Assembly (NCBI GenBank): GCA_964430885.1 | Contig: CAYSHM010000009.1 | Coordinates: 38,703-102,702, forward strand | DNA from: an uncultured archaeon | Lineage (GTDB): Archaea; Thermoplasmatota; Penumbrarchaeia; JASLWR01 | Direction of reading: 5' to 3' | Length of the DNA stretch: 64,000 bases | Shown here: in pieces, positions 1,191 through 45,820 of the stretch | Layout of the letters: every line of letters starts with the position of its first letter | How positions within the stretch are numbered: the first letter of the stretch is position 1 | The notes under the pieces: model-generated | Told to the model about the DNA's origin: nothing | What the model saw: the letters and a program-made list of their open reading frames with translations, nothing else | The model's database searches: none | Position numbers and translations under genes: made by a program

Positions 1191-3212
1191 ATGCTTTTTC
1201 CCCGAAAGATGCTCAAAGCCAATATCATTGTTCATAAGAGCATTCTCTCTGGAGTGTTGGACTCTCTGGAGAAAACAGGGATAATGCAGATAGACCCCCT
1301 CGAGACTAATCTAGATGAAAAGACAAACAATGTTCTCAGGTCAATGGACCATCCTTTGGAATTAAAGGATCTGGCAGAGATGGAGATACGCCTGGAACGC
1401 TTATGTGATATATTCAACTGTTATTTCCCGGAAAAGACCAGTATGATGGATGATATAAGATCAGCCTCGAAACCCCTTAAAAGAATTGAACCTTTTGAAT
1501 TCCATGATCTGATTTCCAGAACCCAGCGTCACCTATCAGTTTGGGAGGATAAGGTTCTAGCCCTGAACCAAGGGTACCTGGAATGCACGGAGGAATTGAA
1601 GACTCTAGCCGAGCGTAAAAAACAGCTTGAACTGCTACTCCCAGTTGATATTTCCCTTGATCTATTGGCCGAGGGCCCTTATACTTTTGTAAAGGTTGGA
1701 ACCACACCTGATCCCTCTCATCTATATGAATCCATGAAGAATATAGCACTGGCCATCGTTAAGGTTTATCCAACCGGTCTTCCTGATACTCCCCATGTTG
1801 CAGTAGTTGCGGGTCTTCATGAAGTAATGGATGAGACAGTATCAGCACTGAGAGGGAAATTGTTCAACGAGCTTCAATTGAGGGATAATTCAGGTAGCCC
1901 GTCTCAATTAATAAAGGAAATTGAACGGTCTGAACTATCAGCCCATGCCTCCAGGGATGAGGCGTTGGAGGAGTTAAAGGGAATTCGCAACAAATACCTT
2001 AAAAAAACCCTTATCATGCTGGAATTGATCTCAGTTGAGAGAATGAAATTTGAAATGCATTCCAGTTTTGGAAAGACTGAACATACCATAGTGATATCCG
2101 GGTGGGTCGAGGAAAGGAAGCGCTCCGCATTGGAACGGATGCTCTCAAAATACAGGGAATTGTTCTTGGATCTTCAGGAACCTGACCTTAAGAAGGATAA
2201 TCCACCTTCCTCACTTGCACATTCTAAATATATCCGACCCTTCGAATCGCTGGTTACGGCATTCTCGCCTCCCAAATACAACGATCTTGATCCCACACCT
2301 TTTGTAGGGATGCTTTTCATTCTTTTTGCAGGTCTTATGCTGGGCGATGCAGGATACGGAGCTATGATACTTATAGCATCTTTTTGGCTTGGCAGCAAGG
2401 TCAAAAAAGGATTCATGGCCGATATGGCCTATATGGGGAAGCTCTTCGGATCTGTGACCCTGTTGATGGGCCTTTTCACCGGTTCGGTATTCGGTGATCT
2501 GATTCCCCGGTTATTCTACGGGGATCCTTTGAAACCGCTCTATACAATACCGGGTCTGGATTTCCTGCCCTACGATGCCCTTAGGAATCCCATGCCTCTT
2601 TTCCTATTCTCCCTGGGTGTGGGTATGGTAGCTATATACATGTCGGTTATTGTATCCTTTGTTACCCATGTGAAACAGGGTGATTATAGAAAGATGCTTT
2701 TCGAGGACATTGCCCTGCTGATGATGATACCCTCCCTTTCAGCACTTGCTGCTCAGCTCGTGGGAATGACCACGCTGCCTGACCTCATATTTCATCTGTC
2801 AGCAGCAGCCTTAATTTCCTCCATATTACTATTGGTTATAGCAAACAAGAGCATGCCCCTCTTAGCCCTTTTTGAGATAACCGGGTTTATAGGTGACCTC
2901 CTGTCATTTGCTAGGATCCTAGCCCTTGGACTGGCCACTGTGGCTTTGGCCATGACCTGGAACATAATGGCTGAACTTCTATTGCCTGATTGGGCGAACA
3001 TTGGTATGGGGATAATAAGAATAATACTGGTAATAGTGCTTCTTATAGCGCTGAACCTATTCAATTTTGCATTCCAAGCTTTGGGTGCATGCATCCATTC
3101 ATTAAGGCTCCAGTATATTGAGTTCTTCAACCGCTGTTATACAGGGGGCGGGAGGTTTTTCCAGCCCTTCAAGGCAGTGCGGATGTATACCACTCTAGAA
3201 AAGGATGAATAA
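1191..3212 (+). CDS. atpI: A/V-type ATP synthase subunit I (a)
   Basis: Soluble N-half; PKYNDLDPTP, GLMLGDAGYG, LSFARILALGLA (essential Arg) and HSLRLQYIEFF motifs. Confidence 0.96.
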   Translation: MLFPRKMLKANIIVHKSILSGVLDSLEKTGIMQIDPLETNLDEKTNNVLRSMDHPLELKDLAEMEIRLERLCDIFNCYFPEKTSMMDDIRSASKPLKRIEPFEFHDLISRTQRHLSVWEDKVLALNQGYLECTEELKTLAERKKQLELLLPVDISLDLLAEGPYTFVKVGTTPDPSHLYESMKNIALAIVKVYPTGLPDTPHVAVVAGLHEVMDETVSALRGKLFNELQLRDNSGSPSQLIKEIERSELSAHASRDEALEELKGIRNKYLKKTLIMLELISVERMKFEMHSSFGKTEHTIVISGWVEERKRSALERMLSKYRELFLDLQEPDLKKDNPPSSLAHSKYIRPFESLVTAFSPPKYNDLDPTPFVGMLFILFAGLMLGDAGYGAMILIASFWLGSKVKKGFMADMAYMGKLFGSVTLLMGLFTGSVFGDLIPRLFYGDPLKPLYTIPGLDFLPYDALRNPMPLFLFSLGVGMVAIYMSVIVSFVTHVKQGDYRKMLFEDIALLMMIPSLSALAAQLVGMTTLPDLIFHLSAAALISSILLLVIANKSMPLLALFEITGFIGDLLSFARILALGLATVALAMTWNIMAELLLPDWANIGMGIIRIILVIVLLIALNLFNFAFQALGACIHSLRLQYIEFFNRCYTGGGRFFQPFKAVRMYTTLEKDE

Positions 3213-3258
3213 CAAATATTGTAAGATACAGGTCAAACATTATAAAAATCGAGGTGAA

Positions 3259-4026
3259 ATGATGAAGAAATGGATGAGAAAATATCTCTTGGGTGCATGC
3301 ATGGTCGCTCTGGTATTCCTGCTTTTTTCAGGCTCGGCTATTGGAGAAGTGGATGCCGACGGAGATGGAATGGACGATGAATGGGAATCCAGTATAATAA
3401 GGGCGAACGGATTGAACATGACCGTTGCCCAGTTCAGCAAGGATGCGGACCCGGATAATGACGGCGCTACCAATATCGAGGAGTACGAGAAAAGGACCGA
3501 TCCCTATGATGGAACGGACTATCTGAAATCCACAAATTACGCTGCCAACGAGAAGGTCAATATTCTGATACTTCTGGGTGCTGCCTTATGTATTGGCATA
3601 CCCGGAATCCTTTCAGCCTTTGGTCTATATATCGCAGGAGTGTCTGCGGTAGGGATGACCACGGAACATACGGACAGGTTCGGAAAGGGGCTTATACTGC
3701 AGGCTCTTCCAATGACCCAGGGTGTTTACGGTCTGGTTTTCGCCATATTCATACTAATGGGTGCCGGTTTCATAGGAACACCTGATTCCAATCTGCTGGC
3801 CAATGTAAATGTAGGATGGGGCGCAGTTATGATCGGTGTTACAATATCCCTTACGGCAGTATCTGCCATACCCCAGGGATTGGTTGCTGGTGCAAGCGCC
3901 AGCGGAGTAGGCCGTAATCCTGATGTGTTCGGAAAGAGCGTGGTTTATTCAGTAATGCCGGAAACCATGGCAGTGTTCGGTTTCCTTATTGCACTTTTCA
4001 TGACCATGGGTGTTGGACTGCTTTAG
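3259..4026 (+). CDS. atpK: A/V-type ATP synthase subunit K (c), 4-TM type, with N-terminal signal peptide and DxDxDG domain
   Basis: FGKGLILQALPMTQGVYG, AIPQG and VMPETMAVFG match NtpK-type proteolipids. SD GAGGTGA at 3251 favours a start at 3259/3262 over 3205. Confidence 0.93.
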   Translation: MMKKWMRKYLLGACMVALVFLLFSGSAIGEVDADGDGMDDEWESSIIRANGLNMTVAQFSKDADPDNDGATNIEEYEKRTDPYDGTDYLKSTNYAANEKVNILILLGAALCIGIPGILSAFGLYIAGVSAVGMTTEHTDRFGKGLILQALPMTQGVYGLVFAIFILMGAGFIGTPDSNLLANVNVGWGAVMIGVTISLTAVSAIPQGLVAGASASGVGRNPDVFGKSVVYSVMPETMAVFGFLIALFMTMGVGLL

Positions 4027-4031
4027 TGGAT

Positions 4032-4115
4032 CAAAGGAATCCCTTCCGGAATATCATTTCAAAGCTGCCAAAAGTTCCTGCCAGGCCTTTGGAATGAATC
4101 CCAGAGGTTCCTTTG
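4032..4115 (+). other. Long nested stem-loop between atpK and atpE
   Basis: CAAAGGAATC pairs with GGTTCCTTTG (10 bp) and TCATTTCAAAG pairs with CTTTGGAATGA (11 bp); each stem has one G-U pair. Confidence 0.6.
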
Positions 4116-4166
4116 GCTAGCAGATAATCCATTGGTAGTCAATGAGCATGGTAAACCGAAATGAGA

Positions 4167-4175
4167 TTATATAAA
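4167..4175 (+). promoter_or_regulatory. Candidate internal TATA box upstream of atpE
   Basis: TTATATAAA preceded by purine-rich sequence, 30 nt before ATG 4197. Confidence 0.4.
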
Positions 4176-4196
4176 TCCAACAATATGGGTGGTAAA

Positions 4197-4772
4197 ATGT
4201 CGCTTGAGAATATAATTGAGAAGATCAATAGCAAGAGGGACGAGGAAATCAGAGAACTGAAGAATAAAAGAGAGAGAGAGATTTCAGTTTTTTCAGAGGA
4301 GTTGGAGGAAAAGGCGGAAAAAGACTTGATGAATCTGATTCAGGAATATGATGGAGATATAGAGATATTTAAGAACCTCAGGATATCCCAGGCAAAAAGG
4401 CAGGTCAAGCAGAGTGACCTTGAAACCAAGGAGAAACTCATCAATGAAACCCTTGAAAAGGTCAGGAAGGATCTAGAAGAGTTCAAGGGACCGAGATATG
4501 AGAGTATACTGAAAAAGCTGGTAAAGGAGGGGAAAGAGATACTGGATACCCATTGCATCCTTATCCCGTCAAGAAAGGAGGATATTCCTTTCCTTGAATC
4601 CCTTGATGCCGGCAGCGTATCAAATGAGATAATCCATGGGTCAGGTGGATTGATAATGGTGTCTCTTGAAGGTGACCTCAAGCTTAACCGAACCTTCGAT
4701 TTCTTCATGGAGAAAAAGAGGGATGAGCTCAGGCATATGATCGCACATGAGCTCTTTAAAAATGATGTATAA
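4197..4772 (+). CDS. atpE: A/V-type ATP synthase subunit E
   Basis: MSLENIIEKI start, long charged helix, GSGGLIMVS..G...LNRTFD motif, position after K. Confidence 0.9.
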   Translation: MSLENIIEKINSKRDEEIRELKNKREREISVFSEELEEKAEKDLMNLIQEYDGDIEIFKNLRISQAKRQVKQSDLETKEKLINETLEKVRKDLEEFKGPRYESILKKLVKEGKEILDTHCILIPSRKEDIPFLESLDAGSVSNEIIHGSGGLIMVSLEGDLKLNRTFDFFMEKKRDELRHMIAHELFKNDV

Positions 4773-4867
4773 ATGATGTCGGATCTATTCTGGATCAATA
4801 TTGAAAGTAAAGAGGATTTATTGAATTATTTCATGGGAATAACCCGATAAAAAGAGAGTGACAGGAT

Positions 4868-6043
4868 ATGTGGATTGATACAATAGCCAGCTATGATATG
4901 ACCACCATAATACTTATAGGGGTACTTGCAGTGGTGTTTCTGGCTACCATCATTTATCTTGCCGCAAAGGTGCCTCTAGTCTGGACAATTGCCCGGTTCG
5001 GTTATTCCAATGCGATATATAATTCAAGGATAAACCGGTTTGTCCAGAAGATATATCTATTGGGTCTCCTTGAAACAGCTGACATATCCGAAGCTTCAAA
5101 TTATATATCATCGGTCAACAGCAGGGATTTTCCGGTCAAATCGGCGGATTCTCCGGAAGATATCGAAAGGCTGCTAGTTGAAAAACTTCATCAGAGATAT
5201 TCGGAAGCTGTTGCCCTCTGCCCTAAATCCCTCAAATCGGTTCTGGATGCAAATCTCATCAAGTATGAGAATCAGGCTTTGAAATCCATATTCACCTCGT
5301 ATTTCAAAGCTCAGGATAAAGAGGGAGGAACCCGTGCTTCCCATTATGAAAAGGTACCGCCCATAGGGAATCTATCTGAGGGAGTTATCAAGGATATGCT
5401 TAACGCTGAAACATTGAAGGATCTAATAGATCTCATACCCCGGGAGGATATTAGAGAACAATTAAATAACCGTAAACCAGAGCATTTTCATGATGCTGAG
5501 ATGATTCTCGATAATTATTACCTTAATAATCTAACTGTGAGAATTAAAAAGGCCCCTTCGCCCCTGAGAAAGGAACTGACCGATCTTCAAATGGTCAACG
5601 TGGACCTTCATAATATGAGAGCCTTGATGAGAATGGTCAGAACCTCAGTTGACCCAAAATACCGGAAAAAGATTTATTCATTTCATCTAGGTAAGAATCT
5701 TGGCCGGACTACAATTGACCAACTAATTAATGCAGAGGATATGGCGAATTTCATAGAGGCACTCAAGGATACCCCATACGGTCCCATGTTCAGAAGTGTT
5801 TACTCCGAATTCCAGAAGGACCGCAGAACCTCTGTATTTGAACTGGAACTTGACCGATTCTGGATAAAATATATCGAAAATTTTGCATTAAGGACCAACA
5901 CCACGGTAGGCCCCATTATCAGGTATCTTCTCGAACTCGAATATGAGGTCAGGAACATAAATTCAGTATTGAAAGGATTGGAACTTCCAGGGGGCAAGGA
6001 ATTGGCTAGACAGGTAATTATCTGTTCGGAGGGTGATCTATGA
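4868..6043 (+). CDS. atpC: A/V-type ATP synthase subunit C (d), with N-terminal TM helix
   Basis: FGYSNA, LKDTPYG, ELELDRFW and LEYEVRNI motifs; operon position. Confidence 0.88.
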   Translation: MWIDTIASYDMTTIILIGVLAVVFLATIIYLAAKVPLVWTIARFGYSNAIYNSRINRFVQKIYLLGLLETADISEASNYISSVNSRDFPVKSADSPEDIERLLVEKLHQRYSEAVALCPKSLKSVLDANLIKYENQALKSIFTSYFKAQDKEGGTRASHYEKVPPIGNLSEGVIKDMLNAETLKDLIDLIPREDIREQLNNRKPEHFHDAEMILDNYYLNNLTVRIKKAPSPLRKELTDLQMVNVDLHNMRALMRMVRTSVDPKYRKKIYSFHLGKNLGRTTIDQLINAEDMANFIEALKDTPYGPMFRSVYSEFQKDRRTSVFELELDRFWIKYIENFALRTNTTVGPIIRYLLELEYEVRNINSVLKGLELPGGKELARQVIICSEGDL

Positions 6044-6384
6044 ACATAGGGGTTATTGGCGATCGTCATACCGTGGAGGCTTTTCGTCTGATAGGCGTCA
6101 GCAGAGGCTGTATTTTGAGAGACCCTGGGGATGATGCAGCCGTGAAGGCATTGGGCGGTAGGTTTGATGAACTGACCAAAGAAGGAGCTGTAGCTGTAAT
6201 ATTGATAACTGAAACGGCACGCAGGCTAATATCTGAAAGGATCGATTACTATTCAAAATTCAAACCTCTTTTCCCATTGATAATTTCCATCCCAGACATA
6301 TCCGGCGAGGATACCGAAGTTGATCATCTGTCCAGACTTATAGAAAGAGCAGTGGGTATCAGCCTCGAAAATGTGGATCAATAA
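6040..6384 (+). CDS. atpF: A/V-type ATP synthase subunit F
   Basis: IGVIGDRHTVEAFRLIGV, PLIISIP and LIERAVGI motifs; ATGA overlap with atpC. Confidence 0.93.
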   Translation: MNIGVIGDRHTVEAFRLIGVSRGCILRDPGDDAAVKALGGRFDELTKEGAVAVILITETARRLISERIDYYSKFKPLFPLIISIPDISGEDTEVDHLSRLIERAVGISLENVDQ

Positions 6385-6390
6385 GGATGA

Positions 6391-7905
6391 TCAAGATCTG
6401 CTTCCTTTCAGGTATTTCACCAAGGCAATGACGATCACAAGGCACATCAATGAACTGATTATTCCTATTCTCAATATCAGTCCTCTTCCGATTTCTTGAT
6501 CGGGATTACCTATATTGTTCTCATCAGTGTTGTTATCCTCTGCTTCCAATCCCAGTTCTATCGACCTCATGTCCGTGTTCACCCAGTTTTCACCCTGGGA
6601 ATTGATGCTGAATCGGTAGTATAGCTTATCCCTATCCTTCGGAATCAGAACGGTCCTTGAATATGATCTTGTTCCATTCAGGGATAGATTTACATGAGGG
6701 CCGGAATCAAACCAATATTCCAGATGTACATTGATATTCTGGGGACGATCCCCTGTTGAATTGGCGATGCCTATCCTGAATGTCAGGTTTTCTCCGTGAT
6801 CAGCTTTTATGGGGGTAAGGTCGAAAAGCGAAAGATCTAGAACAGGGTCTATAAGATCCAACATATCCATTATCACGTCAACGCTGTAATGGTCTGAACC
6901 TGTATCAGCTGATGGAGTGTCCCCGGCAGTGGAAGATATCAGTCGGTCCTCCAGTACGGAGTTAATAATTATGAAATCTATCCTGGAAATGAAATCAGGA
7001 TTCTTATGCCCGTAGGTGAATCCGTAATTATCAGGGTTTAGGTACCGGTAAACGTCAGTGAAGTAATGAACCTCAGATGAGTACTGGCCATAGTATGAAT
7101 CTCCTGGCTGAACGATCATGGTCATTGGTCCGTAACCCAAACCTTCTTCCGGTTCGGGCATATCCTCATCCTCCGGGGAGTAGCAGTTCAGATCACCCAG
7201 AAGCATAATTGGTACATCCCCCAGTCCATCCATGAAATTGATTATACCCTCCATCTCCCATTCCCTCTGCCATTCATTCCAGTATCCCGACATGGCCTTA
7301 AGATGAACACCTAAGAGATGGATCTCCATATTATTTATCTCAACAGCACAGTGCATGAAGGAGTGCATCATATCATAGGAACTTCCGTCATCCAGTTTGA
7401 CCACCGATACCTGCTCGAAATAGGTTATTGGAAATCTCGAAAGAACCGCTGAACCGCCTGATGAATAATCAACGCCTTGAACACAGCGGGATTCATAGGG
7501 ATCTTCCCTGTAGAAATGATCATTGAAATGTGAGGTATAGCTCTCAAGTTCCTCATTGTCATTGTTGTCCCAATCCCCCGTTTCGATACATACCAGGATA
7601 TCGGGATTCTCTTCCTTTACAACATCCTTCCAGGTGGGGTCCCATCCGCTGTCTCCGATGTTGTAGGTCATGATCTTGACCTCGTTGTCAACAACACCAT
7701 TCCGTTCTGAAACTTGGCCAGTCAAATCGATTTTTTCCTTTTTCGATAGAACAACTGAATTATTGTGATAGTTAACACCAGAATTAAAAATAAGCATGAG
7801 TATCAAAGCTGTAAACAACGAAGGCAGGATCACAGCACCTAGATTCTTCCGACCTCGTCGGTGAGATATAACCATAACATGTCTAGAGGAGCGGAAAGGC
7901 ATCAT
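6391..7905 (-). CDS. Secreted, membrane-anchored endonuclease/exonuclease/phosphatase (EEP) family protein
   Basis: MTYNI, PDILVCIE, HLKA, LLGDLN, RIDFII and SDHY catalytic motifs; N-terminal hydrophobic segment; C-terminal TM followed by basic residues. Confidence 0.87.
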   Translation of the reverse strand: MMPFRSSRHVMVISHRRGRKNLGAVILPSLFTALILMLIFNSGVNYHNNSVVLSKKEKIDLTGQVSERNGVVDNEVKIMTYNIGDSGWDPTWKDVVKEENPDILVCIETGDWDNNDNEELESYTSHFNDHFYREDPYESRCVQGVDYSSGGSAVLSRFPITYFEQVSVVKLDDGSSYDMMHSFMHCAVEINNMEIHLLGVHLKAMSGYWNEWQREWEMEGIINFMDGLGDVPIMLLGDLNCYSPEDEDMPEPEEGLGYGPMTMIVQPGDSYYGQYSSEVHYFTDVYRYLNPDNYGFTYGHKNPDFISRIDFIIINSVLEDRLISSTAGDTPSADTGSDHYSVDVIMDMLDLIDPVLDLSLFDLTPIKADHGENLTFRIGIANSTGDRPQNINVHLEYWFDSGPHVNLSLNGTRSYSRTVLIPKDRDKLYYRFSINSQGENWVNTDMRSIELGLEAEDNNTDENNIGNPDQEIGRGLILRIGIISSLMCLVIVIALVKYLKGSRS

Positions 7906-9326: not shown

Positions 9327-9463
9327 GATCGGACATCTGATTTTCGGTTAGTTCTTTTTACATTACCGAATTTAGATATTCTTCATTTTTCAGGTTTCTG
9401 GCAAATTATATATACGCATACTCCAATAGTTCATTTGCTATTCGTTATTTTAGAGGTGTGTAT

Positions 9464-12400
9464 ATGCGTAATTTAATGTCATTGTTAGTTGTGAGTCTAT
9501 TTCTGTTCACGTCTTTTATGAATGTGTCGTTCACGTCGGATGTGGGCGGTTATCTGGAAAGCGAATCGGAAGAAATCACCCGTGCCGGCCCTCAGGTCCA
9601 TGAGAGTGAACATGGCGGCTGGTGGCTGCAGGATGATGACGAGGATTTTGAGGGCGGTGAGTTCGAGGATGCTGAGATCGGTGATAATGTGGTTCAGGCG
9701 GTCAGGGAAGCATTGCCATTGAGTGATTGGGAATGGGAAGGAGTTAATTTAAATTTGAATCCAGGCCCTAGAAGGGGACATGCAATGGCTTATGATATTG
9801 AAAATAAAAAAGTAGTATTATTTGGAGGTAAGTATTCAGATTCCCAGGGACAGCATTATTACCCTAATACATGGGTCTTTGATGTGGCAACCAATCAATG
9901 GAACCAAATAGGGTCTGGACCGGGAGAGCGCGAAGGCCATTCTATGGTATATGATGAATATAATAGGCGAGTACTTCTTTTTGGTGGTGTAAAATGGCAA
10001 AGTCCAAATCCAATATATTATGGTGATACCTGGTTTTATGATACAGAAAATAATACTTGGGATTTAGTATCTGATAGTGGTCTTCCTGCTAGACGTTATC
10101 ATTCAATGGCTTACGATAGGATTAATCAAAAGATAGTAGTATATGGAGGTGATGGGGAGGTTCCTAATTGTGGATTTAAAACTTGCATTTTCATGTGCAG
10201 AGATAAAACATGGTTTCAAGTACCTGAGGATGGACCGGTTTATACTACTACTGGTGATATTGCTTTTGATAATAACTTAAATAAAATAGTATTATATGGA
10301 GCCCATGATGGAACTTGGCTTTTTAACACCAATAACAATATGTGGCAGGAATTTCAAAATATAGGTTCTTTTGGAACCATGGAGCATTATTCATGTATTT
10401 ATGATGAAAAAAGTCAAAAAACTGTGATATATGGGGGTTCTAAGAACAATCAACCAGATTTAAGCTCCGAAACCTGGACATTGAATAGTAGTGGGTGGAT
10501 AAAAGGAATATCTGGTCCTGTTGGCAGAAATCAACACGATATGGTCTATGACAGCCATAATCATAAATCAATATTATTCGGCGGATACGCCCAAGATTAT
10601 CTTTCCGATACCTGGACCCTCACAACCTCCCAAATAGTCCCCGAAGCCACTTATACCTCCCCTTCCATCTCTCTCCCATTAAACCAGCAGTGGGACGAGC
10701 TCAACATCAACGCCACCGAGCCCGACAATACCAAGCTCACCGTCTCCGTAATGAACGCGGACACAGGGCTCTACATACCAGATTACCGCGACATGGAGCC
10801 AAGGGAAGTGGACCTCTCGGGGTTGGATGCGGCCAATATAAAACTCCGCTGTCACCTGGAGAGTAGTGGTGATATATCACCTGAATTGGATTCCTGGAAG
10901 GTCACCTGGAAACCTAAAGTCGTAGAACCCGTTTATCTAGGTGGAATTCCTTCGGCCTTGTATGTCACAGAAGATACACCCCAGGATAACATTCTAAACC
11001 TTTCAGAGTACTTCGGAGAAGGACGCAGGTCTAATACCAGAAGTACAGGGCTCGATTATTCATTTGCTTCCATATCAAATACCGACAATATCACTTTATT
11101 GATCGATGAAGATCATATTGACGTGATCTATCTTGAGGACAACTGGACCGGCAAGACCGATGTAGTTGTTGAATGCGAGAATACTGAAGGTACAACTGTG
11201 CAGTCTCCCCGATTCAGCATTATTGTCCAGGGTGTGAACGATCCCCCAGCGTGGCGCTTGCCTCTTCCTCCTATAATCATGGACGAGGGTTTCCAGTTCA
11301 AATCCGCTTTCAAAGTCGATGATTACATTCTTGACGCTGAAGAAGACATGATGGATATAACAGCCAGCTGTGACAATCCCGATGTATCCGTAGTGGTGGA
11401 CCCTGAAACTCGTATCATTATAACTCCCAAAGAGGATTTCTACGGTTTGGCAAATGTTACAGTCGCAGTCAAGGAGACCTATGACCCTTCTAATAAAATA
11501 CAACAATCGGTTTCCCTAATAGTCAATTCAGTTAACGATGATCCGGTAATAGAGTTACTCACTCCGGGTGATAACGCAGTGTTCAATGATGTCAATGTTA
11601 CCCTAAGCTGGATGGGGTCGGATATTGAAACCCCCATTGATCAGCTGACCTATGATGTATTTTTGGGAAATGATTTAGATCCGGCCATACACTCTAGGGG
11701 AATAAAAAATACTTCGATTCTGCTGAGCAGCCTATCAGATAAAAGTACATACAGATGGAAGGTTGCAGTATGGGATACCCAGGGGAAAATGGTTTCTTCG
11801 CCGGTCAGGACCTTCAGGATAGACACGGATTCTGACCCACTGCCGGGCAGTTCAGGAGAAGGTTTGAAGTTCACTGTGGAAGTAACCGGTGAAGAAGTAT
11901 CGGTAGCTCAGGGTAATACTACCTCATTCAATGTGAAGGTTACCAATGATGATTCAATGGATTTAACCCTGGGAGTTCTGGCGGCTGGCATGACTGCACC
12001 CTATGTAGATGTGGATAATATTCTGACCCTGGAAAAAGAAAAGAGCAAGGATCTGACTGTTTTGATCAGCCCAGGTTATAGTGTAAAGCCTGGAGACTAC
12101 GATCTGGTGCTTCTATTCATATCACCCGATGGAGTTAAATGCGTCACTATTCCCATCGATATATTGAAGGGTACGGATCCATCTGATACAACTGGTAATG
12201 ACGATGAGGAAGATGATGATTCCGAACCCAAAGATCAGAATACCGAGGAACCTGCAACAAAGACATCTTCATCTGTGAATGATACGCTGTTCTACATGAT
12301 AATAGCAGTTCTTGTACTCGTACTGATACTTCTGGCAATAGGCTTCCTGATCACCTACCGGAAGACCGAGCAGCTGCAGACCGAAATTGATCAGAAACGG

Positions 12401-12778
12401 GAACAATCTCCAGAAACACAAAAGGAATCGCCCCCTGAGGTGGTAGAAACCGAGATGTACTATCCTGAGAACAATAAGGCATTTACCCCTCAGCCCCGAA
12501 TGGATCAATCCGGAGCTGACTATAATATGCCGGGATCCTTTCCTCCAGGTGACTACCCGCCTGTAAACCAGCATATTGATGTTCAGCTCCCAGGTCTTCC
12601 TCCTGAAAGGGAATCACTTCCTGAAATGACTCAAGCATCGTCTAAGGAAGTCGTTCAGACTCAGCCTCCGACGCCAGCCGGTCCCGAGGTTCAGCTGCCT
12701 CAATCGGTCCAAACCCCAATTCCTTCGGAGGATATGAAGATGCTTCCCCAGAAGGTAACTCCGCCGCCGCCACCCTGA
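9464..12778 (+). CDS. Surface protein: Kelch beta-propeller, cadherin-like (VNDxP) repeats, Ig/FN3-like domains, TM, Pro-rich tail
   Basis: Signal peptide; about six R..H.M.YD....LFGG...DTW repeats; VNDPP/VNDDP; C-terminal TM. SD GAGGTG before ATG 9464. Confidence 0.85.
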   Translation: MRNLMSLLVVSLFLFTSFMNVSFTSDVGGYLESESEEITRAGPQVHESEHGGWWLQDDDEDFEGGEFEDAEIGDNVVQAVREALPLSDWEWEGVNLNLNPGPRRGHAMAYDIENKKVVLFGGKYSDSQGQHYYPNTWVFDVATNQWNQIGSGPGEREGHSMVYDEYNRRVLLFGGVKWQSPNPIYYGDTWFYDTENNTWDLVSDSGLPARRYHSMAYDRINQKIVVYGGDGEVPNCGFKTCIFMCRDKTWFQVPEDGPVYTTTGDIAFDNNLNKIVLYGAHDGTWLFNTNNNMWQEFQNIGSFGTMEHYSCIYDEKSQKTVIYGGSKNNQPDLSSETWTLNSSGWIKGISGPVGRNQHDMVYDSHNHKSILFGGYAQDYLSDTWTLTTSQIVPEATYTSPSISLPLNQQWDELNINATEPDNTKLTVSVMNADTGLYIPDYRDMEPREVDLSGLDAANIKLRCHLESSGDISPELDSWKVTWKPKVVEPVYLGGIPSALYVTEDTPQDNILNLSEYFGEGRRSNTRSTGLDYSFASISNTDNITLLIDEDHIDVIYLEDNWTGKTDVVVECENTEGTTVQSPRFSIIVQGVNDPPAWRLPLPPIIMDEGFQFKSAFKVDDYILDAEEDMMDITASCDNPDVSVVVDPETRIIITPKEDFYGLANVTVAVKETYDPSNKIQQSVSLIVNSVNDDPVIELLTPGDNAVFNDVNVTLSWMGSDIETPIDQLTYDVFLGNDLDPAIHSRGIKNTSILLSSLSDKSTYRWKVAVWDTQGKMVSSPVRTFRIDTDSDPLPGSSGEGLKFTVEVTGEEVSVAQGNTTSFNVKVTNDDSMDLTLGVLAAGMTAPYVDVDNILTLEKEKSKDLTVLISPGYSVKPGDYDLVLLFISPDGVKCVTIPIDILKGTDPSDTTGNDDEEDDDSEPKDQNTEEPATKTSSSVNDTLFYMIIAVLVLVLILLAIGFLITYRKTEQLQTEIDQKREQSPETQKESPPEVVETEMYYPENNKAFTPQPRMDQSGADYNMPGSFPPGDYPPVNQHIDVQLPGLPPERESLPEMTQASSKEVVQTQPPTPAGPEVQLPQSVQTPIPSEDMKMLPQKVTPPPPP

Positions 12779-38969: not shown

Positions 38970-39112
38970 ATTAAAAGGCATCCTTTATTGAGCTTGTTCG
39001 ATATTTACGGTAATATAAATAGAAATGTAGGACTTTTTTTGCATAGGTTTTTTTATATCAGTTCTTAGAAGAAAATAATAGATATGATATTAATCAAAAT
39101 TTGTTGATAATT

Positions 39113-39141
39113 TATGGATCAAATAAGTATGGATCAAATAA
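39113..39141. repeat. Perfect 14-bp direct repeat TATGGATCAAATAA x2
   Basis: Copies at 39113-39126 and 39128-39141. Confidence 0.8.
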
Positions 39142-39172
39142 TTATATAATATATTCAAAGGAAGGTAATAGG

Positions 39173-42100
39173 ATGTTTAAAGAAAGAAGTATTTCTAATA
39201 AAAGAAGAGCTGGAGTTTTCAGGAAATTGGTCACGTTCCTATTTCCCATGGTGTTTATTTCACTGATGGCATTGATGATGTTAGTTCCCACAAATTCCAT
39301 TACAAGTCAGATTTCCAAATCCAACAACGGACAGGAAAGCAAAATTGCAGATGATCAGGGGCCCGTATACGATGAGGATGATGTGCCTCCAGAATCAGGT
39401 CATGACGGCAATTTGAATGATGAGAAAACCAATGGAATGATTGCAGGCGAACTCCCTCACTCACCGGTTTGGGACTGTGGTGATCCCATAGAAGTACTGG
39501 ATTTTATATCCGAGAATTATGACGAAGAGTCTGAGAGCTGGCTATTCGAGGGACCGACTGCCCATGAAGACCAGCGGATGGCTCAGGAGGTAGCCGAGGC
39601 TATTGACCATAACCTGGAGAATGCTACCTACGCTCATCAGAAGCAGATGTATGAAGTTCTGACCGATGTCTTCAATGCCATGGGTATATTGAGCATCGAC
39701 GGTACTCCAGGAGGCGACATGTGGTATCCTGGCATTGATGAAGAGATTGATGCCATGGAACATTATCGGCCGGAATCAACCAGAGGTAATTCATACTTTG
39801 TGGATTCCGGTGGCAACCTTGATGTCTATACTGATGCTGATATTTCGTTTATAATTCCCATGGGTATTGATCCCGAAGAAGTTGAATCCGCAGTTCTTAC
39901 ACTTTCTATATATGATGTGGACGAGACCGATGCTCAAAGCTGTGCAGGAGGTCCCGAGGTGGACATGGTCTATATCAACGGCAACCGATTGGGAGCTCTT
40001 ACCGGGGCCAATGATCAATGGTCTACATCTACGTTCAATGTTGACACCGCCTATGTTCAGAAAAATAATACCATACTTATCGATACTGATTCCACAGGTA
40101 CGGGGTGCTGGTGGGTAAAGTGCGACTGGGGTGAATTGATAATCAATGGCGGAGAGGAGGAAGAGGAGATGCGGATCGATTCAATGGAGACCGATAAGAA
40201 GGCCTACCAGCTGGGACAGAATATCCAACTGACAGTGATTGTATCATCGGATATAGATGCTGACGGTGTTCGGCTTGAAATGAACCTTCACAATCCAGCG
40301 GGTGTGAATGTTGACGGTGCCAGTGCCAATTTCAATCTTCCCAAGGGAGGTTCTCATACCGTTCAGCAGTCCCTTTACATCCCATCCGATGATGAAGTGG
40401 GAATATACACTATTGTTGCCATACTTCATCACAAAGGCATACAGGACCAGGAGAAAAAAGAAGTTTCGGTGGGTTCCGATATCATTGTAGAAGATGAGGG
40501 GATAGAATTTGTCAGCATCAATAAGGATGCAGACGGAAAAGTTAAGGATGTGGATGTCAGTGTGATGATCAATTTTGAAAGTGATGACACGGAAACTGAA
40601 GCCACATTCATCTGTAAAGCATATGAGATCAATCTGACCACTGGAGCCAGTATTGACATTGATAGTAAAACCATAACAATGAAACCCGGGAACTTCAAAT
40701 GGGACTTGAACTGGGTCCCGAAGGATCTCAATGTCAAGATATCCTTCGTAGCAGACCCTGAAGATAAGGTGAAGGAGGTGGATGAGACCAATAATAAGGG
40801 TGAGCGGGATCTGGAGACCAAGCCAGTAGTAAAAAGGGTGGATATGAAATACAAGGGCTTTTTTGTACACAGCATCGAAGTTAAAAATGATTTCACCGCA
40901 ATAGTCGAATCCCCGAACGAGGAAGTTATAGGTGTGAAATTCTATCTCAAGGACAAGCTCAAACACACTGATGTGACAAAGGCCGATGGCTGGAAATGGA
41001 CCGAGTATAATGTGGGGGAGCTTGAGGAGGATACTGTCTGTAAGGTAATCGCCATAGCTAAAAGCGGCGAGCAATCAGAACCATATACCTTTGAGATCAA
41101 GGTTTGGAAACTTCCCTGGTGGCTTGAGAAGCTTGTTCTGAACGCTAAACCCATTACCATTCCCGGTCTAGGGGACAAGATAGAGGCCAAGTTCGAGTCC
41201 AAGTCATTGAAATATTCGGTATCTTGGACTATCCTCGAAGCGGAAGATGTGGGATTCAGCGTGCCCAAGGCTATTCCCTATATAGGCGGTGATTACAAGT
41301 TCAGTACTAAGATCACAGTAGGCGCAGACCTATATCTGTCCGGGCAGATAGATGTAACCGGTGAGGGTGAGCTGAAGATGACGATAATGGGATTTGCCGG
41401 CGAGGGTAAATTGAAGGTGGAAGGGTCGTTTTCCGCAGGAATGCCTCCAACATTCCATGGGATGAAGGTTACCGGAAGCGCAAAGATCACTATACCTCTG
41501 AATAAACTTTTAGGACTTCCCTCGGAATTGGCCCTGCCGGACGTGGAGATAGGATGGTGGACCATTCCGTTATCAAAACTCGGAGGAATTAAACTGGAGG
41601 TTTCCGGCTCCCCTAAGGCCGAGATCATCTTCACCCTTGATTCAGGTTTCAGCCTTACCGAAACAGAGCTGAAACCAGGTCTGGAACTGGAAGCCAAAGG
41701 GACCATATCTGCTGAGTGGTATCTTATAGGCAAGGTACTGGCGGAGCTTACTCTTTCCGGAAGCGTGACGGGCTCACTGAAGATACCGTCCTGGGAAGTG
41801 GGAATAGAGCTGGAAGAGAAACTTCAATTGAAGGTACAGGTAAGATCATATGAAGAGACCTTCAACCCCTTCGGCGGGCCCTGGAAGCAGAACCTCAGAA
41901 GGTCAGATGATAGTTCGCTGACAATTGATGACGGAAAGCATGGCTCCAATCCCAATTGGACGCCATACAGGGTCGAGGATTATCTCATAGAGAACCGGTG
42001 GACACGAGGCGGTCTCGGAGGAGATCATCTCACAAAGGACCTGCTTCTTGATACATCACCCGATGTTGTTGCGGATGACAATGGAGCAGTGGCAGTTTGG

Positions 42101-45100
42101 GTTCACGATAACGGAACAGGTCCACTTCCAGGTTCACTGAACATATTCTCCTCGTCATGGAATTCATATTACGGTTGGTCCCAACCAACACCTATAGCTA
42201 TGGATAATAATGTGGATTCATCTCCTTCCATATCTTCCCTGCCAGGATCAGGTCAGATCTGTATCTGGACCCACGAGACATTGGAAGCGGTGGAAGGTGA
42301 CCCATTTGCTTCCTTCAACTCGACGGAGGTATTCTATTCAACATATAACGGCGGATGGAGTGTCCCTTCCAATATTACCAATAACAGCCAGATAGAGGGC
42401 CATCCCGATGTGGCATCGGGAAATAGTATGACCATTGCAGTATGGGAAGCGGATCAGGATAATGATCCGGGTACAACCCATGATGCAGAGCTGTTCTATT
42501 CCATCTATCAGACTGGATCCTGGAGCATGCCGCAAATGGTTGTTGAAGGAGGTAATGTAGGGATGGATTGGATGCCCAAGGTTGCTTTTCTCCCTGACGG
42601 CAACGCCATGGTCGTCTGGATGAACGATGCTGATGGGAATTATACTCCCCAAAATCAATTCACCCTAGTCGCAAGCATCTACAATACAACAACCGGTAAC
42701 TGGAGCGCAGTCAGCGATATTCACACCGGTGTTGTCAATCCTTCATATGATTTTGCGGTAAATCCATCCGGAGAGCTTATGCTTGTATTCACAGAGGAAG
42801 AATATATTCAGGCTGAAGATGCCAATCATACTATTCTGTTTACCGTTATCCGATCAGCTGAAGGCAACTGGTCTGAAGCTTCACCATTCACCACCGAACT
42901 TGGTATCGTATCGCCCAATGTAGAAGTGACCGACCAAGGTTATTATTTGCTTTCAGCCTCGGTATTGGCAGATAACTGGAATGTAGTATCCTGGGTCCAG
43001 CTTGATGAGAACTATACCTGGACGCCTTCCCTAAATATAAGCGATGACGAATACCCTGACGATCAGCTTGTGACGTCCATCGATCCCACCAATGGAAGGG
43101 TTATGAACCTCTGGCTGAAATCCAACAGAAGTCAGGGCTCCACATTCGATGTGTTTGCCCGAGATATGCAAATTCTGCCGGAACTGACCATTGAGGGTGA
43201 CTTGACCTTGAGCGATCCAAATGCCCATGCAGGGGATAATATCACATTGTCCATACCTGTGAACAATACAGGTCTGGCAAAAGCGGAGAACCTGGAAGTT
43301 AGGTTCTACAAGGGTGATCCCGACCAGTGGGGTTCAGAGGAGATAGGAACCTCAACTATTGGGAGCATTATACCGGGAGAGTTGAAAACCGTATCCACAC
43401 ATTGGATAGTTCCGGACGTGGGAGCACCTCTTGATATCTATGCCAAGGTTGACTGGGCAGGTGCCATTACAGAGATAAATGAAAGCAATAATAAGGCTTT
43501 CATACGCACACTGGAACTGGTTCTGGATGAGGATTATATTTCGCTGGTCCCATACAGAGGAAAATACAAGGTGAACATGACCGTCCATAACAGGGGTCTC
43601 TGCTCAATAAGTGCACTTTATATTGATATATTCAGGGGGATAGCGATCCCCGCTAATCTTCTCAATTCCACAAGGGAGGATGTGGTGCTTCTACCCGGGG
43701 AGAGCATTCAGCTGGAGATGTATTTCGATGCGGGCTCACTGAATGCTACCGAGAGGGTCCGGATAGTGGCCAGTGCAAGGGATTATTATTCAAATGTCTA
43801 TCCTGAGAGGAGTGATGAGAATAATCGTCTTGATGTATATCCCACAGTCGTACCTGATCTCAGTATCAACACCAGCAGTATAGAGATACCCGATAGAAGC
43901 CAAGGGGAGGTGGAGGTTAGAGCGTTGGTGCATAACCTCGGTTTCGGTAATGCCGAGAATGTAACAGTCTCTTTCTACCTGGATGAGGTGAATGAAACGC
44001 ATAGAATTGGTGAAGATTTCATTATACAGAGAATATACTCCGGTGGTCAATACACTGTATCGACCATGTGGAATGCAACACCTGGCAATCACCAGATATA
44101 TGTGATTGTAAACAGGGATTATTCCATTATTGAGAGCGATTCCGGTAACAACCATGCCAGTAGAGCCGTGACGATACTTCCGGCCCCGGACCTTCTTATC
44201 GACGAAGCATCCATATCCTTCAATGGAACGGGTATAATAGTTACAGTTCACAACAACGGTCCTATAGATATTCTAACATCGGATCTGGCAGTATTTAACT
44301 GGGATCCCAGGGAGTACATGTATGTCAATCCTTATCAGACTAAGAATCCCTATCAGATTACCACTAGAGGCATACCGGTGATCGAGGCAGGCGGCTCTGT
44401 GACACTTTTCATAAGAATTGACTGGGAGAATGAGAACTTCACAAACGGTGATCTCTATGTGCATCTTGATCCGTGGAACAGGATACGTGAACTGGATGAA
44501 ACGAACAACGTGGGATATAAGAATCTCACACTTCCATCACTCTTATCGCCTAGGTTCAATCCCGAGAGCGGGCTTCCCGGTTCATGGTTCCAGTTCTCAG
44601 TGGGGTATGTTTCATTGATCAATGCCACCCCTGAAAATGTAAAGGCCCATTTAAGTTCCCCCAGCGGTGATCATGAGCTTATTCTATCCTATCATGGCGG
44701 AAATATAAGCAATGCGTCGTTTTCAACAGAGGCGGTCTTTACTGGCGGAATGAATCTGAACAATGTCGGCACCTACGAGCTCTCGTTCTCCGCCTTTGAC
44801 GGAAATAATACTGTTCATGTAAATACCTCCTCTTTGGGCGAGAAGATGTTTATCATTGTTGACAATGATTCCGATAACGACACCTACCTAGATTTCAAGG
44901 ATGCCTTCCCCGATGATCCTAATTATCATCTGGATAGTGATGGGGACGGACTTCCGGACGCTTGGGAAGTCTCCCACAATCTCAGTGCTTATGACAGCTC
45001 AGACGCTATTGAGGATGCGGATTCAGACGGTTTGAACAATACTTACGAATTCCAGCTTGGAACAAACCCAGAGGTGGACGATACCGACGGTGACGGCTAC

Positions 45101-45820
45101 AATGACGGTAAAGAGGTGGACAAGGGCACTGATCCTGTCGATCCCCTGTCAAAACCCAAGGAAGCTTCATCGAATAACCTGCTGTTAATAATCATTATCA
45201 TCGTTGTTGTGTTGGCAATTATAGCCATTGCGGTAATTCTGGTCATCAAGAAAGGGAAGAATACCTCCGATGATGATGATGATAAGGAAGTTGAAGAGGA
45301 GGATAAATTGGATTCGGAGGTTGAGGAGGGGAAACAGCCTGAAGATGAAACACCGAAGAAGGATGAAGATAAAGGCGGGACCGATAAGTCCAAGGAAGGG
45401 AAGGATGAGCCGTTAGAAACCGTAACGATCAAAGAATCAGACACACAAATCCCGAAAACAGAAAAAGATGATCTGCAAGATGTGAAACCTGATTCCCATA
45501 AAGCCAAGGACGAGGATCCCAAGGATGTCAAGGAAAAAGAAAAACTCCCTGAACACGTAGTTGGTGAAGATGACGGTTGGGATGATGATCAAGATGAAGA
45601 TGATTGGGGTGCGGAACCCGATGAAGAGGGAGGTTGGGATGATGATGGGGATGATTCTATTATGGGTGATGAACCCTTGAGCGAATCTGAGGGATCTGAT
45701 GATGATATGCAGAAAAAACCTGATGATGATCCAGCAGGGGAAGAGGTTAATTTCTGTTCTGAATGCGGTTCTAAGGCCTCGGGCAAATTCTGCAACATGT
45801 GCGGGACAAAACTTGTGTGA
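39173..45820 (+). CDS. Giant surface protein: CARDB repeats, propeller-like region, TSP3-like DxDxDG repeats, TM, acidic tail, double zinc ribbon
   Basis: P[DE]L.I...V.N.G...I.E..E.NN motifs; DSDGDGLPDAWE and DTDGDGYNDG; C-terminal CSECG..CNMCG. Start chosen by SD GAAGGT. Confidence 0.85.
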   Translation: MFKERSISNKRRAGVFRKLVTFLFPMVFISLMALMMLVPTNSITSQISKSNNGQESKIADDQGPVYDEDDVPPESGHDGNLNDEKTNGMIAGELPHSPVWDCGDPIEVLDFISENYDEESESWLFEGPTAHEDQRMAQEVAEAIDHNLENATYAHQKQMYEVLTDVFNAMGILSIDGTPGGDMWYPGIDEEIDAMEHYRPESTRGNSYFVDSGGNLDVYTDADISFIIPMGIDPEEVESAVLTLSIYDVDETDAQSCAGGPEVDMVYINGNRLGALTGANDQWSTSTFNVDTAYVQKNNTILIDTDSTGTGCWWVKCDWGELIINGGEEEEEMRIDSMETDKKAYQLGQNIQLTVIVSSDIDADGVRLEMNLHNPAGVNVDGASANFNLPKGGSHTVQQSLYIPSDDEVGIYTIVAILHHKGIQDQEKKEVSVGSDIIVEDEGIEFVSINKDADGKVKDVDVSVMINFESDDTETEATFICKAYEINLTTGASIDIDSKTITMKPGNFKWDLNWVPKDLNVKISFVADPEDKVKEVDETNNKGERDLETKPVVKRVDMKYKGFFVHSIEVKNDFTAIVESPNEEVIGVKFYLKDKLKHTDVTKADGWKWTEYNVGELEEDTVCKVIAIAKSGEQSEPYTFEIKVWKLPWWLEKLVLNAKPITIPGLGDKIEAKFESKSLKYSVSWTILEAEDVGFSVPKAIPYIGGDYKFSTKITVGADLYLSGQIDVTGEGELKMTIMGFAGEGKLKVEGSFSAGMPPTFHGMKVTGSAKITIPLNKLLGLPSELALPDVEIGWWTIPLSKLGGIKLEVSGSPKAEIIFTLDSGFSLTETELKPGLELEAKGTISAEWYLIGKVLAELTLSGSVTGSLKIPSWEVGIELEEKLQLKVQVRSYEETFNPFGGPWKQNLRRSDDSSLTIDDGKHGSNPNWTPYRVEDYLIENRWTRGGLGGDHLTKDLLLDTSPDVVADDNGAVAVWVHDNGTGPLPGSLNIFSSSWNSYYGWSQPTPIAMDNNVDSSPSISSLPGSGQICIWTHETLEAVEGDPFASFNSTEVFYSTYNGGWSVPSNITNNSQIEGHPDVASGNSMTIAVWEADQDNDPGTTHDAELFYSIYQTGSWSMPQMVVEGGNVGMDWMPKVAFLPDGNAMVVWMNDADGNYTPQNQFTLVASIYNTTTGNWSAVSDIHTGVVNPSYDFAVNPSGELMLVFTEEEYIQAEDANHTILFTVIRSAEGNWSEASPFTTELGIVSPNVEVTDQGYYLLSASVLADNWNVVSWVQLDENYTWTPSLNISDDEYPDDQLVTSIDPTNGRVMNLWLKSNRSQGSTFDVFARDMQILPELTIEGDLTLSDPNAHAGDNITLSIPVNNTGLAKAENLEVRFYKGDPDQWGSEEIGTSTIGSIIPGELKTVSTHWIVPDVGAPLDIYAKVDWAGAITEINESNNKAFIRTLELVLDEDYISLVPYRGKYKVNMTVHNRGLCSISALYIDIFRGIAIPANLLNSTREDVVLLPGESIQLEMYFDAGSLNATERVRIVASARDYYSNVYPERSDENNRLDVYPTVVPDLSINTSSIEIPDRSQGEVEVRALVHNLGFGNAENVTVSFYLDEVNETHRIGEDFIIQRIYSGGQYTVSTMWNATPGNHQIYVIVNRDYSIIESDSGNNHASRAVTILPAPDLLIDEASISFNGTGIIVTVHNNGPIDILTSDLAVFNWDPREYMYVNPYQTKNPYQITTRGIPVIEAGGSVTLFIRIDWENENFTNGDLYVHLDPWNRIRELDETNNVGYKNLTLPSLLSPRFNPESGLPGSWFQFSVGYVSLINATPENVKAHLSSPSGDHELILSYHGGNISNASFSTEAVFTGGMNLNNVGTYELSFSAFDGNNTVHVNTSSLGEKMFIIVDNDSDNDTYLDFKDAFPDDPNYHLDSDGDGLPDAWEVSHNLSAYDSSDAIEDADSDGLNNTYEFQLGTNPEVDDTDGDGYNDGKEVDKGTDPVDPLSKPKEASSNNLLLIIIIIVVVLAIIAIAVILVIKKGKNTSDDDDDKEVEEEDKLDSEVEEGKQPEDETPKKDEDKGGTDKSKEGKDEPLETVTIKESDTQIPKTEKDDLQDVKPDSHKAKDEDPKDVKEKEKLPEHVVGEDDGWDDDQDEDDWGAEPDEEGGWDDDGDDSIMGDEPLSESEGSDDDMQKKPDDDPAGEEVNFCSECGSKASGKFCNMCGTKLV

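Follow-up and report, generated by a model that had tools for sequence, protein, structure and literature searches.

An archaeal A-type ATPase rotor subunit with a predicted signal peptide and a conserved module of putative calcium loops ahead of its membrane core

A K-subunit gene with a long N-terminal extension

We analysed a 64,000-nucleotide stretch (hereafter the window) of contig CAYSHM010000009.1 from an uncultured archaeon of the phylum Thermoplasmatota, in which one gene encodes the K/c proteolipid of an archaeal A-type ATPase preceded by a long and conserved N-terminal extension. We assign the gene to the K/c subunit because it encodes two ATP-synt_C hairpins and is flanked by further atp genes, the order in the window being atpI-K-E-C-F (Table 1). 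It lies within a frame that is open without interruption over window 3205-4026 (plus strand). The translation begins with MMKKWMRKYLLGACMVALVFLLFSGSAIG (residues 1-29), runs on through EVDADGDGMDDEWE...DPDNDGATNIEEYEKRTDP and then enters the hydrophobic core; the second of two acidic loops in this extension leads into YEKRTDP, followed by a linker and four hydrophobic helices. An earlier note, made from the letters of the window, had described the protein as a c subunit with a Sec-like leader and a DxDxDG module, and the text it quoted agrees exactly with the translation of 3259-4026.

The start of the gene is likely ATG 3259 or ATG 3262, both of which lie behind the same Shine-Dalgarno-like motif. 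The database copy of the protein (P0002; 254 residues, 100% identical) begins at the second of these. Between residue 54, which is within the module of the extension, and residue 128, which is within the first transmembrane helix (TM1), the frame contains neither ATG nor GTG nor TTG, so that any start beyond the module would cost the protein TM1. This rules out the downstream start that the earlier note had named as a possible refutation of its reading.

The surroundings of the gene are those of a working rotor subunit. In the related loci L002-L023, AtpI is encoded directly 5' of the extended K gene; locus L024, at the end of a contig, retains K only as its final 41 residues, with E and C behind it. 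When the core (residues 99-255) was searched by phmmer against the 15,245 open reading frames (ORFs) of at least 60 residues in the source genome (3.13 Mb, 44 contigs, 91.6% complete), the K ORF was the sole match, and PF00006 identified a single A/B pair, on another contig (G000:C15:67336-69677). Neither a second rotor subunit nor a second rotary ATPase was thus seen beside the extended K and its enzyme. The ATPase genes are divided between two contigs, I-K-E-C-F lying at window 1191-6384 and the catalytic A and B genes on the other one. Beyond atpF lies a convergent Exo_endo_phos gene (6391-7905, minus strand).

Table 1. Features of the K-subunit gene and of related genes in the window
Feature	Position	Strand	Basis
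atpI (stator subunit I/a), directly upstream of K	1191-3212	+	Pfam V_ATPase_I, E 1.3e-19
Shine-Dalgarno-like GAGGTGA, ahead of ATG 3259 and ATG 3262	3251-3257	+	read from sequence
K/c proteolipid gene, 255 residues from ATG 3259, between atpI and atpE	3259-4026	+	
Predicted signal peptide, residues 1-29: n-region with K/R, hydrophobic core, A-I-G	3259-3345	+	own heuristic
Putative Ca loop 1, residues 32-43, DADGDGMDDEWE, ligand positions 1, 3, 5, 9, 12	3352-3387	+	sequence and alignment
N-glycosylation sequon N53-M-T55, between the loops	3415-3423	+	sequence
Putative Ca loop 2, residues 64-75, DPDNDGATNIEE, with exit helix and TDP motif to P82	3448-3504	+	sequence and alignment
Stalk/linker from module to TM1, residues 83-102	3505-3564	+	AlphaFold2 helix
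Rotor core, four transmembrane helices and stop codon; Q154 in hairpin 1, E235 in hairpin 2	3565-4026	+	Pfam and fold match
Putative Na+-ligand residues T153-Q154, Q206, E235-T236	3715-3720, 3874-3876, 3961-3966	+	alignment to NtpK
atpE	4161-4772	+	Pfam vATP-synt_E, E 5.7e-18
atpC (d/AC39-type rotor socket subunit)	4868-6043	+	Pfam vATP-synt_AC39, E 2.3e-41
atpF	6040-6384	+	Pfam ATP-synt_F, E 6.4e-14
Same module type beside the C-terminal membrane anchor of a 2257-codon surface-protein ORF	44930-45073	+	module profile, E 3.5e-10; next transmembrane segment 28 residues on

Two calcium-type loops conserved like the rotor core

The extension contains two 12-residue loops that follow the EF-hand pattern, with ligands at positions 1, 3, 5, 9 and 12 and glycine at position 6. 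To assess their conservation we used an alignment (A1) of 64 full-length orthologues that are 39-71% identical to the query. Residues D34, D36, D40, W42, E43, D64, D66, D68, G69 and E75 are invariant, and D32, M38, D39, T71, N72 and P82 are retained in at least 90% of the sequences. Ligands that remain invariant across such a range of identity indicate that the pattern is more than chance. Averaged over sequence pairs, identity is 65% in loop 1 and 66% in loop 2, each taken together with its helix, falls to 43% between the loops and 36% in the stalk, and reaches 68% and 71% in the two hairpins. The loops are therefore conserved about as tightly as the rotor core.

Database matches place the module close to bacterial TSP3 repeats. 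The NCBIfam model Amuc_1099_fam matches residues 49-88 (E 4.1e-7), and the Pfam family TSP3_bac (PF18884) matches 14 of the 64 orthologues at E <= 0.01, with a best value of 3e-6. A search with the module profile against the PDB was headed by EF-hand proteins, none of them significant (calcineurin B at E 0.016, calmodulins, parvalbumins, and lanmodulin at 0.11); loop 2 aligns with the EF loops of calcineurin B, calmodulin and lanmodulin at weak E values of 0.016-0.5, and no EF-hand Pfam family is listed for the K subunit at E <= 10. The earlier note had proposed looking for a TSP3-like family together with ATP-synt_C: the latter is found well above its cut-off, whereas TSP3_bac stays below its own on the K subunit, which is why we call the module TSP3-like rather than a certified member of the family. 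Taken together, these matches suggest a TSP3-like pair of EF-type loops, with Ca2+ as the metal indicated by the ligand pattern. Loop 2 (D64-P65-D66-N67-D68-G69, window 3448-3465) has proline at position 2, as do the lanmodulin EF loops aligned with it; this proline is retained in the window's own family but not class-wide, where the consensus is DxDxDG.

AlphaFold2, run on the full-length protein with the 64-sequence alignment, gave a predicted local distance difference test score (pLDDT) of 90.3 overall and 86-93 for residues 31-80. In the model, helices 40-49 (pLDDT about 90 from residue 40) and 72-77 leave the loops, and there are no entering helices. A single continuous helix spans residues 87-136, with pLDDT 73-74 for residues 81-100, so that TM1 would extend outward by about 15 residues. 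The module modelled alone reached pLDDT 89.6. Compared with the PDB by Foldseek, this module-only model had no match at E <= 0.001 and 18 at E <= 10 (best 5.7); VIA-align against 48,161 chains returned three with Z >= 2 (best 2.3), which assigns no fold and does not imply a novel one, and the ESM Atlas gave no usable match.

Between the two loops, 59 of the 64 orthologues carry an N-X-S/T sequon, compared with 18.4 expected after shuffling the composition of each linker. Generic units of the same module in surface proteins of the genome have a sequon at this place in only 6 of 35 cases. Archaeal N-glycosylation occurs at the outer face, and the conserved sequon therefore fits a module that is exported and lasting.

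A predicted cleavable leader and an outward N-terminus

Ahead of the module, residues 1-29 have the features of a Sec-type signal peptide, with a predicted cut at AIG29|E30. We scored leaders by a heuristic that looks for a hydrophobic 12-mer preceded by at least one lysine or arginine and followed by small residues at -3 and -1. This pattern is present in 53 of 58 orthologues, with alanine at -1 in 43, glycine in nine and serine in one; the other five have no N-terminal lysine or arginine and are perhaps truncated gene calls, while the remaining six of the 64 were left unscored, as the loop-1 pattern missed them. Mean pairwise identity in the leader is 26%, a drift that fits a cleaved signal. 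A lipobox at L11-G-A-C14 was considered and rejected: only about four hydrophobic residues precede it, and the orthologue leaders shown have no cysteine there.

Export of the N-terminus also agrees with the expected topology of the core. To our knowledge, the hairpin loops of rotary ATPase c subunits always face the cytoplasmic, soluble head. Here the two hairpin loops (TTEHTDRFGKG and GRNPDVFGK) carry lysine and arginine residues, and the loop between helices 2 and 3 carries none. Both termini, and with them the module, are thus expected outside.

A K-type core with one ion site per four helices

The core itself is that of a duplicated, four-helix proteolipid. Pfam ATP-synt_C recognizes two hairpins in the K subunit (E 5.3e-25; 87.9 bits against a cut-off of 24) and matches all 64 orthologues. 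A profile search aligned the core with Enterococcus hirae NtpK (2bl2_A) at E 1.1e-23, and Foldseek superposed the core model on the same chain with E 2.9e-7, TMt 0.89 and a root-mean-square deviation of 1.5 over 156 columns at 31% identity. Residues T153, Q154, Q206, E235 and T236 are invariant among the orthologues. E235 aligns with the glutamate of the NtpK ET motif, and hairpin 1 has Q154 rather than a carboxylate, leaving one ion site per four helices. The Na+ ligands of NtpK lie in its T-Q, Q and E motifs, which align with T153-Q154, Q206 and E235-T236. By this analogy, the ATP synthase may be Na+-coupled.

Distribution of the module and of other N-terminal additions

Whole genomes of relatives and 401 genomes of the phylum were searched, and 125 genomes match at E <= 1e-12. 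In the window's own class (37 genomes, including its own), the best match begins at or before query residue 32 in 31 genomes, that is in 4/4, 2/2, 1/1, 1/1 and 23/24 genomes of families f1, f2, f5, f9 and f7, respectively. One class genome, G032 (62% complete), yielded no K match at that threshold. Outside the class, none of the 89 matching genomes has a match beginning before residue 91. A protein database contributed 280 homologues at E <= 0.001, and the best 120 of these were sorted by our own sequence patterns: 68 have the loops, 35 have a leader and linker but no loops, two are multi-hairpin proteins, two have no extension and one is a protein with precomputed PKD matches (P0090, start missing). 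A further 12 rows of about 161 residues were missed by the patterns, and P0002, the same protein as the query, was left out. The architecture that the earlier note had asked to be sought elsewhere is thus common in the class and among the best homologues, and it is not absent from close orthologues.

In a quick tree of the core, which excluded P0002, the 12 rows of about 161 residues and the two multi-hairpin rows, all 68 module-bearing sequences fall in one starred clade of 82, together with 12 leader-plus-linker sequences, one unextended sequence and the PKD row. The tree is compatible with a single origin of the module but does not show one. Leaders are not confined to the window's class, since they are also found in a distant, long-branched group of K subunits (P0105-P0121, 225-236 residues), in which the leader is followed by about 45 linker residues rich in Pro, Thr and Asp and lacking a sequon.

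Other relatives carry different additions or different cores. A K protein of 603 residues (L025:1178-2989, G147:C1) consists of a leader, about 95 β-rich residues that include three sequons, and six ATP-synt_C stretches. Another of 438 residues (L027:678-1994, G119:C33) combines a leader and four such stretches with a PKD-like segment in between (Pfam PKD E 0.029, below cut-off). A search for longer homologues returned six proteins, namely five multi-hairpin K proteins of 752-1101 residues and one TSP3 surface protein of 1836 residues; among these six there was no K subunit with a larger ectodomain. The five (P0122-P0126, annotated only as ATP-synt_C) look like a 966-residue ORF of many fused c hairpins, without an N-terminal extension, at L026:1046-3946 (G057:C67). 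Such proteins may be whole rotor rings in one polypeptide, an arrangement reportedly present in Methanopyrus kandleri. Where source names are given for the homologues, they read 'Thermoplasmatota archaeon', and the public runs that contain the stretch are marine metagenomes from one study.

The same module adjoins the anchors of surface proteins

A hidden Markov model built from the c-subunit module matches the K subunit and 22 further ORFs of the genome, 23 in all. Those 22 encode large proteins, secreted or with a single anchor, in which units of about 48 residues are often repeated in tandem. Among all 23, only the K subunit has several predicted transmembrane segments after the module (segments were called by a simple hydropathy window). 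One of the 22 is the '39173' surface protein in which the earlier note had recognized the same module type: the unit found there (Table 1) is followed by the membrane anchor. Twelve of the 22 have 10-30 residues between the end of their last unit and the next predicted transmembrane segment towards the C-terminus, and in 14 this distance is at most 58 residues; the corresponding gap in the K subunit is 12 residues. Because the module-then-anchor geometry is the same, the N-terminus of the K subunit resembles the juxtamembrane region of a type I surface protein.

The DxDxDG loop pattern occurs in 42 ORFs of the genome. Two very large surface proteins are encoded in the window, one of 1106 residues with a C-terminal anchor and a Pro-rich tail (9458-12778, plus strand), the other the 2257-codon ORF with TSP3-like units beside its anchor (about 39047-45818, plus strand).

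A proposed collar on the outer face of the rotor

On balance, we think it probable that the leader is cleaved and that the mature ring keeps the module as an external, Ca2+-stiffened and glycosylated collar. The Sec-type signal peptide would drive export of the N-terminus, and signal peptidase would cut after A-I-G29 to leave a mature protein of about 226 residues that begins with an acidic module of 50-55 residues. Judging from the ligand pattern, each of the two EF-hand/TSP3-type loops would bind one Ca2+, and an N-glycan would be attached at the sequon between them. The module would be borne on the outward helical extension of TM1. With one module per ring subunit, hence about ten if the ring is built like that of E. 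hirae (K10), the modules would together form a stiffened, negatively charged and sugar-coated collar that rotates, on the outer face, along with the ring. Three observations favour retention: the loops are conserved like the rotor core and the leader is not, the sequon is conserved specifically in the rotor module, and the same geometry recurs in surface proteins, where the module is assumed to be part of the mature protein.

The function of such a collar is the least certain part of this proposal. It could cap the wide, lipid-filled hole of a ring made of four-helix K subunits and aid ring assembly or stability in Ca2+-rich sea water, a role that we put forward tentatively. The earlier note had envisaged an external Ca-binding crown serving as plug, stabiliser, sensor or attachment point, and these roles are conjectural too. 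A structural role is preferred because sister lineages place quite different exported pieces at the same site; all that these N-terminal additions appear to have in common is their predicted export and their location at the mouth of the ring.

Several points weigh against this proposal. The 64 orthologues are kin, so that their counts are not independent and the support drawn from invariance and from the sequon is overstated. On the K subunit, TSP3_bac scores only 8.9 bits (E 1.9) against a cut-off of 25, and the leader call comes from our own heuristic rather than a trained predictor. The NCBIfam subunit-K models all fall below their curated cut-offs (PRK06271 at 100.2 versus 211 bits, PRK08344 at 96.9 versus 108), and by these scores the protein is a divergent family member that fits no curated equivalog. 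Five class genomes lack the whole module, with matches that begin only at residues 91-103 (G005, G006, G008 and G014) or at residue 63 (G010), and one group inside the module-bearing clade of the tree has an acidic linker only; the module is therefore dispensable for rotor function. A 199-nucleotide contig from one small metatranscriptome run, which covers exactly 3352-3550 (the part of the gene that encodes the module) at >=99% identity with one differing letter, is a hint that the gene is transcribed, but it could be carried-over DNA, and the run belongs to the study that may be the source of the window. Finally, a collar on a fast rotor near the outer loops of the stator is not obviously harmless.

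Alternative explanations

The module could instead be a pro-region, which together with the leader would serve biogenesis only (Sec targeting, insertion of TM1 with its N-terminus out, templating of assembly) and be removed by a second cut near the stalk to leave a bare ring. The poor conservation of the stalk would allow a processing site there, and relatives get by with a short acidic linker or none. Subunit L of the Thermus thermophilus V/A-ATPase reportedly loses its leader, and its PDB chains are of 99-102 and 73-74 residues; both points fit the wider statement of the earlier note that cleavable leaders occur on some A/V proteolipids. A discarded piece, however, would hardly be expected to keep invariant ligands and loops conserved like the core, and a specifically conserved sequon would be costly on it. 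No second conserved cleavage motif was seen in the alignment, the modelled stalk helix is continuous with TM1, and the surface proteins place the same module before a predicted anchor. We consider a pro-region unlikely.

A second alternative retains the N-terminal tails but assigns them an electrostatic role: they would act as a cation antenna or buffer that raises Na+ or H+ (or Ca2+) at the outer half-channel of subunit I. The tails are indeed acidic (residues 30-100, 71 residues in all, contain 19 D+E versus 6 K+R and have a pI of 4.05), and the leader-bearing relatives without loops keep acidic tails with net charges of -2 to -12, so that negative charge, unlike the loops, is the shared trait. 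The apparent conservation of the E. hirae Na+-site ligands would suit this role too. Yet bound Ca2+ would offset part of the charge, sea water already contains about 0.5 M Na+, a charge cloud needs no invariant loop geometry, and other families of the phylum have β-rich and PKD-like ectodomains at the same site. As the explanation for the module, it seems to us rather improbable.

Another possibility is that the leader is an uncleaved signal anchor. Residues 3-26, which AlphaFold2 models as a helix (pLDDT 85-89), would then form a fifth transmembrane helix, TM0, that fills the hole of the ring, and the module would be the outer loop between TM0 and TM1. Eukaryotic c'' offers a parallel, as it has an extra N-terminal helix, and c'' chains (180-213 residues) are longer than c chains. 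The wide hole of a four-helix K ring must be filled (PMC3604715). Two features speak against an anchor. In 53 of 58 orthologues small -3/-1 residues follow the hydrophobic core at a constant spacing, 52 of these 53 with alanine or glycine at -1, and the segment identity is 26%, which resembles that of a cleaved signal rather than that of a helix packed in a ring. We regard this arrangement as improbable.

A more far-reaching idea builds on the collar itself. Since the same module adjoins the anchors of a dozen or more surface proteins, the ring modules might engage the juxtamembrane layer of those proteins in a Ca2+-dependent manner and act as a clutch or brake that couples rotation to envelope state or external Ca2+, at the extreme passing torque outside the cell; we rate this as very improbable. 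Finally, a gene-model artefact with the real c start downstream, or a non-rotor paralogue with another gene supplying the rotor, is scarcely credible: a second gene could lie on DNA missing from the incomplete assembly, but the frame offers no start codon between residues 54 and 128, the assembly contains no other c-domain ORF, the operon position is conserved in L002-L023 and the full frame in 31 of 37 class genomes.

Returning to the proposed collar, its occurrence would mean that, in a class of uncultured Thermoplasmatota from the sea and from sediments, the majority of genomes encode a metal-binding, probably glycosylated module on every subunit of the rotor ring. If the module is retained, it becomes testable how a wide four-helix ring gets sealed and assembled, whether external Ca2+ reaches the motor, and how a rotor turns beneath a crowded, glycosylated surface. 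It would also provide a natural outer-face handle on the c-ring for structural and single-molecule work.

Comparison with known systems

Rotary ATPases are usually depicted with rotor rings that are bare cylinders in the membrane. In the protein described here the rotor core is of the ordinary K type, and the conserved ectodomain that it carries is unprecedented; the full-text searches made returned no paper on a c subunit with a leader and a domain in archaea or bacteria. For the core, the nearest system is NtpK, which forms the K10 ring of the Na+ V-type ATPase of E. hirae (PDB 2BL2). It is likewise a duplicated proteolipid of four transmembrane helices with one carboxylate per subunit, and its PxTQG, QG and ET motifs align with those of the K subunit. 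In contrast, NtpK has 156 residues, aligned from its residue 10, and neither leader nor outer module; the K subunit has about 100 additional N-terminal residues. Subunit L/K of T. thermophilus is a prokaryotic V/A proteolipid reportedly made with a leader, but it has two transmembrane helices and no module before TM1.

For the module, the nearest relatives are bacterial TSP3 repeats (PF18884) and EF-hand or lanmodulin-type loops. They share with the K subunit DxDxDGxxDxxE loops at intervals of about 22-30 residues, the second of which leads into GT(D/N)P; repeated acidic loops of this form are the consensus of the TSP3 repeat family. TSP3 repeats, however, form tandem arrays in surface proteins, whereas here a single unit is fused to a polytopic rotor protein.

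For the ring as a whole, eukaryotic systems offer a comparison. The c-rings of eukaryotic V-ATPases have luminal plugs, namely ATP6AP1/Ac45, ATP6AP2, yeast Voa1 and the extra helix of c''. In these enzymes, too, a ring of four-helix proteolipids has protein in its centre and at the mouth that faces away from the cytoplasm, but the plugs are separate subunits or an extra transmembrane helix rather than a domain repeated on each subunit. In the mitochondrial ATP synthase of Euglena gracilis, ten N-terminal extensions of subunit c form a β-barrel that reaches about 20 Å into the lumen and contacts a stator helix (PMC6930080). These N-termini likewise project on the side opposite the catalytic head and rotate together with the c subunits, which shows that a rotor is able to bear an outgrowth there. 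The enzyme is F-type and mitochondrial, each subunit contributes one short β-strand, and the passages that describe the extensions mention no metal loops, glycan site or independently folding module (PMC6930080). Among the systems compared here, the euglenozoan β-barrel is the closest precedent for a rotor-borne protrusion on the far side of the membrane.

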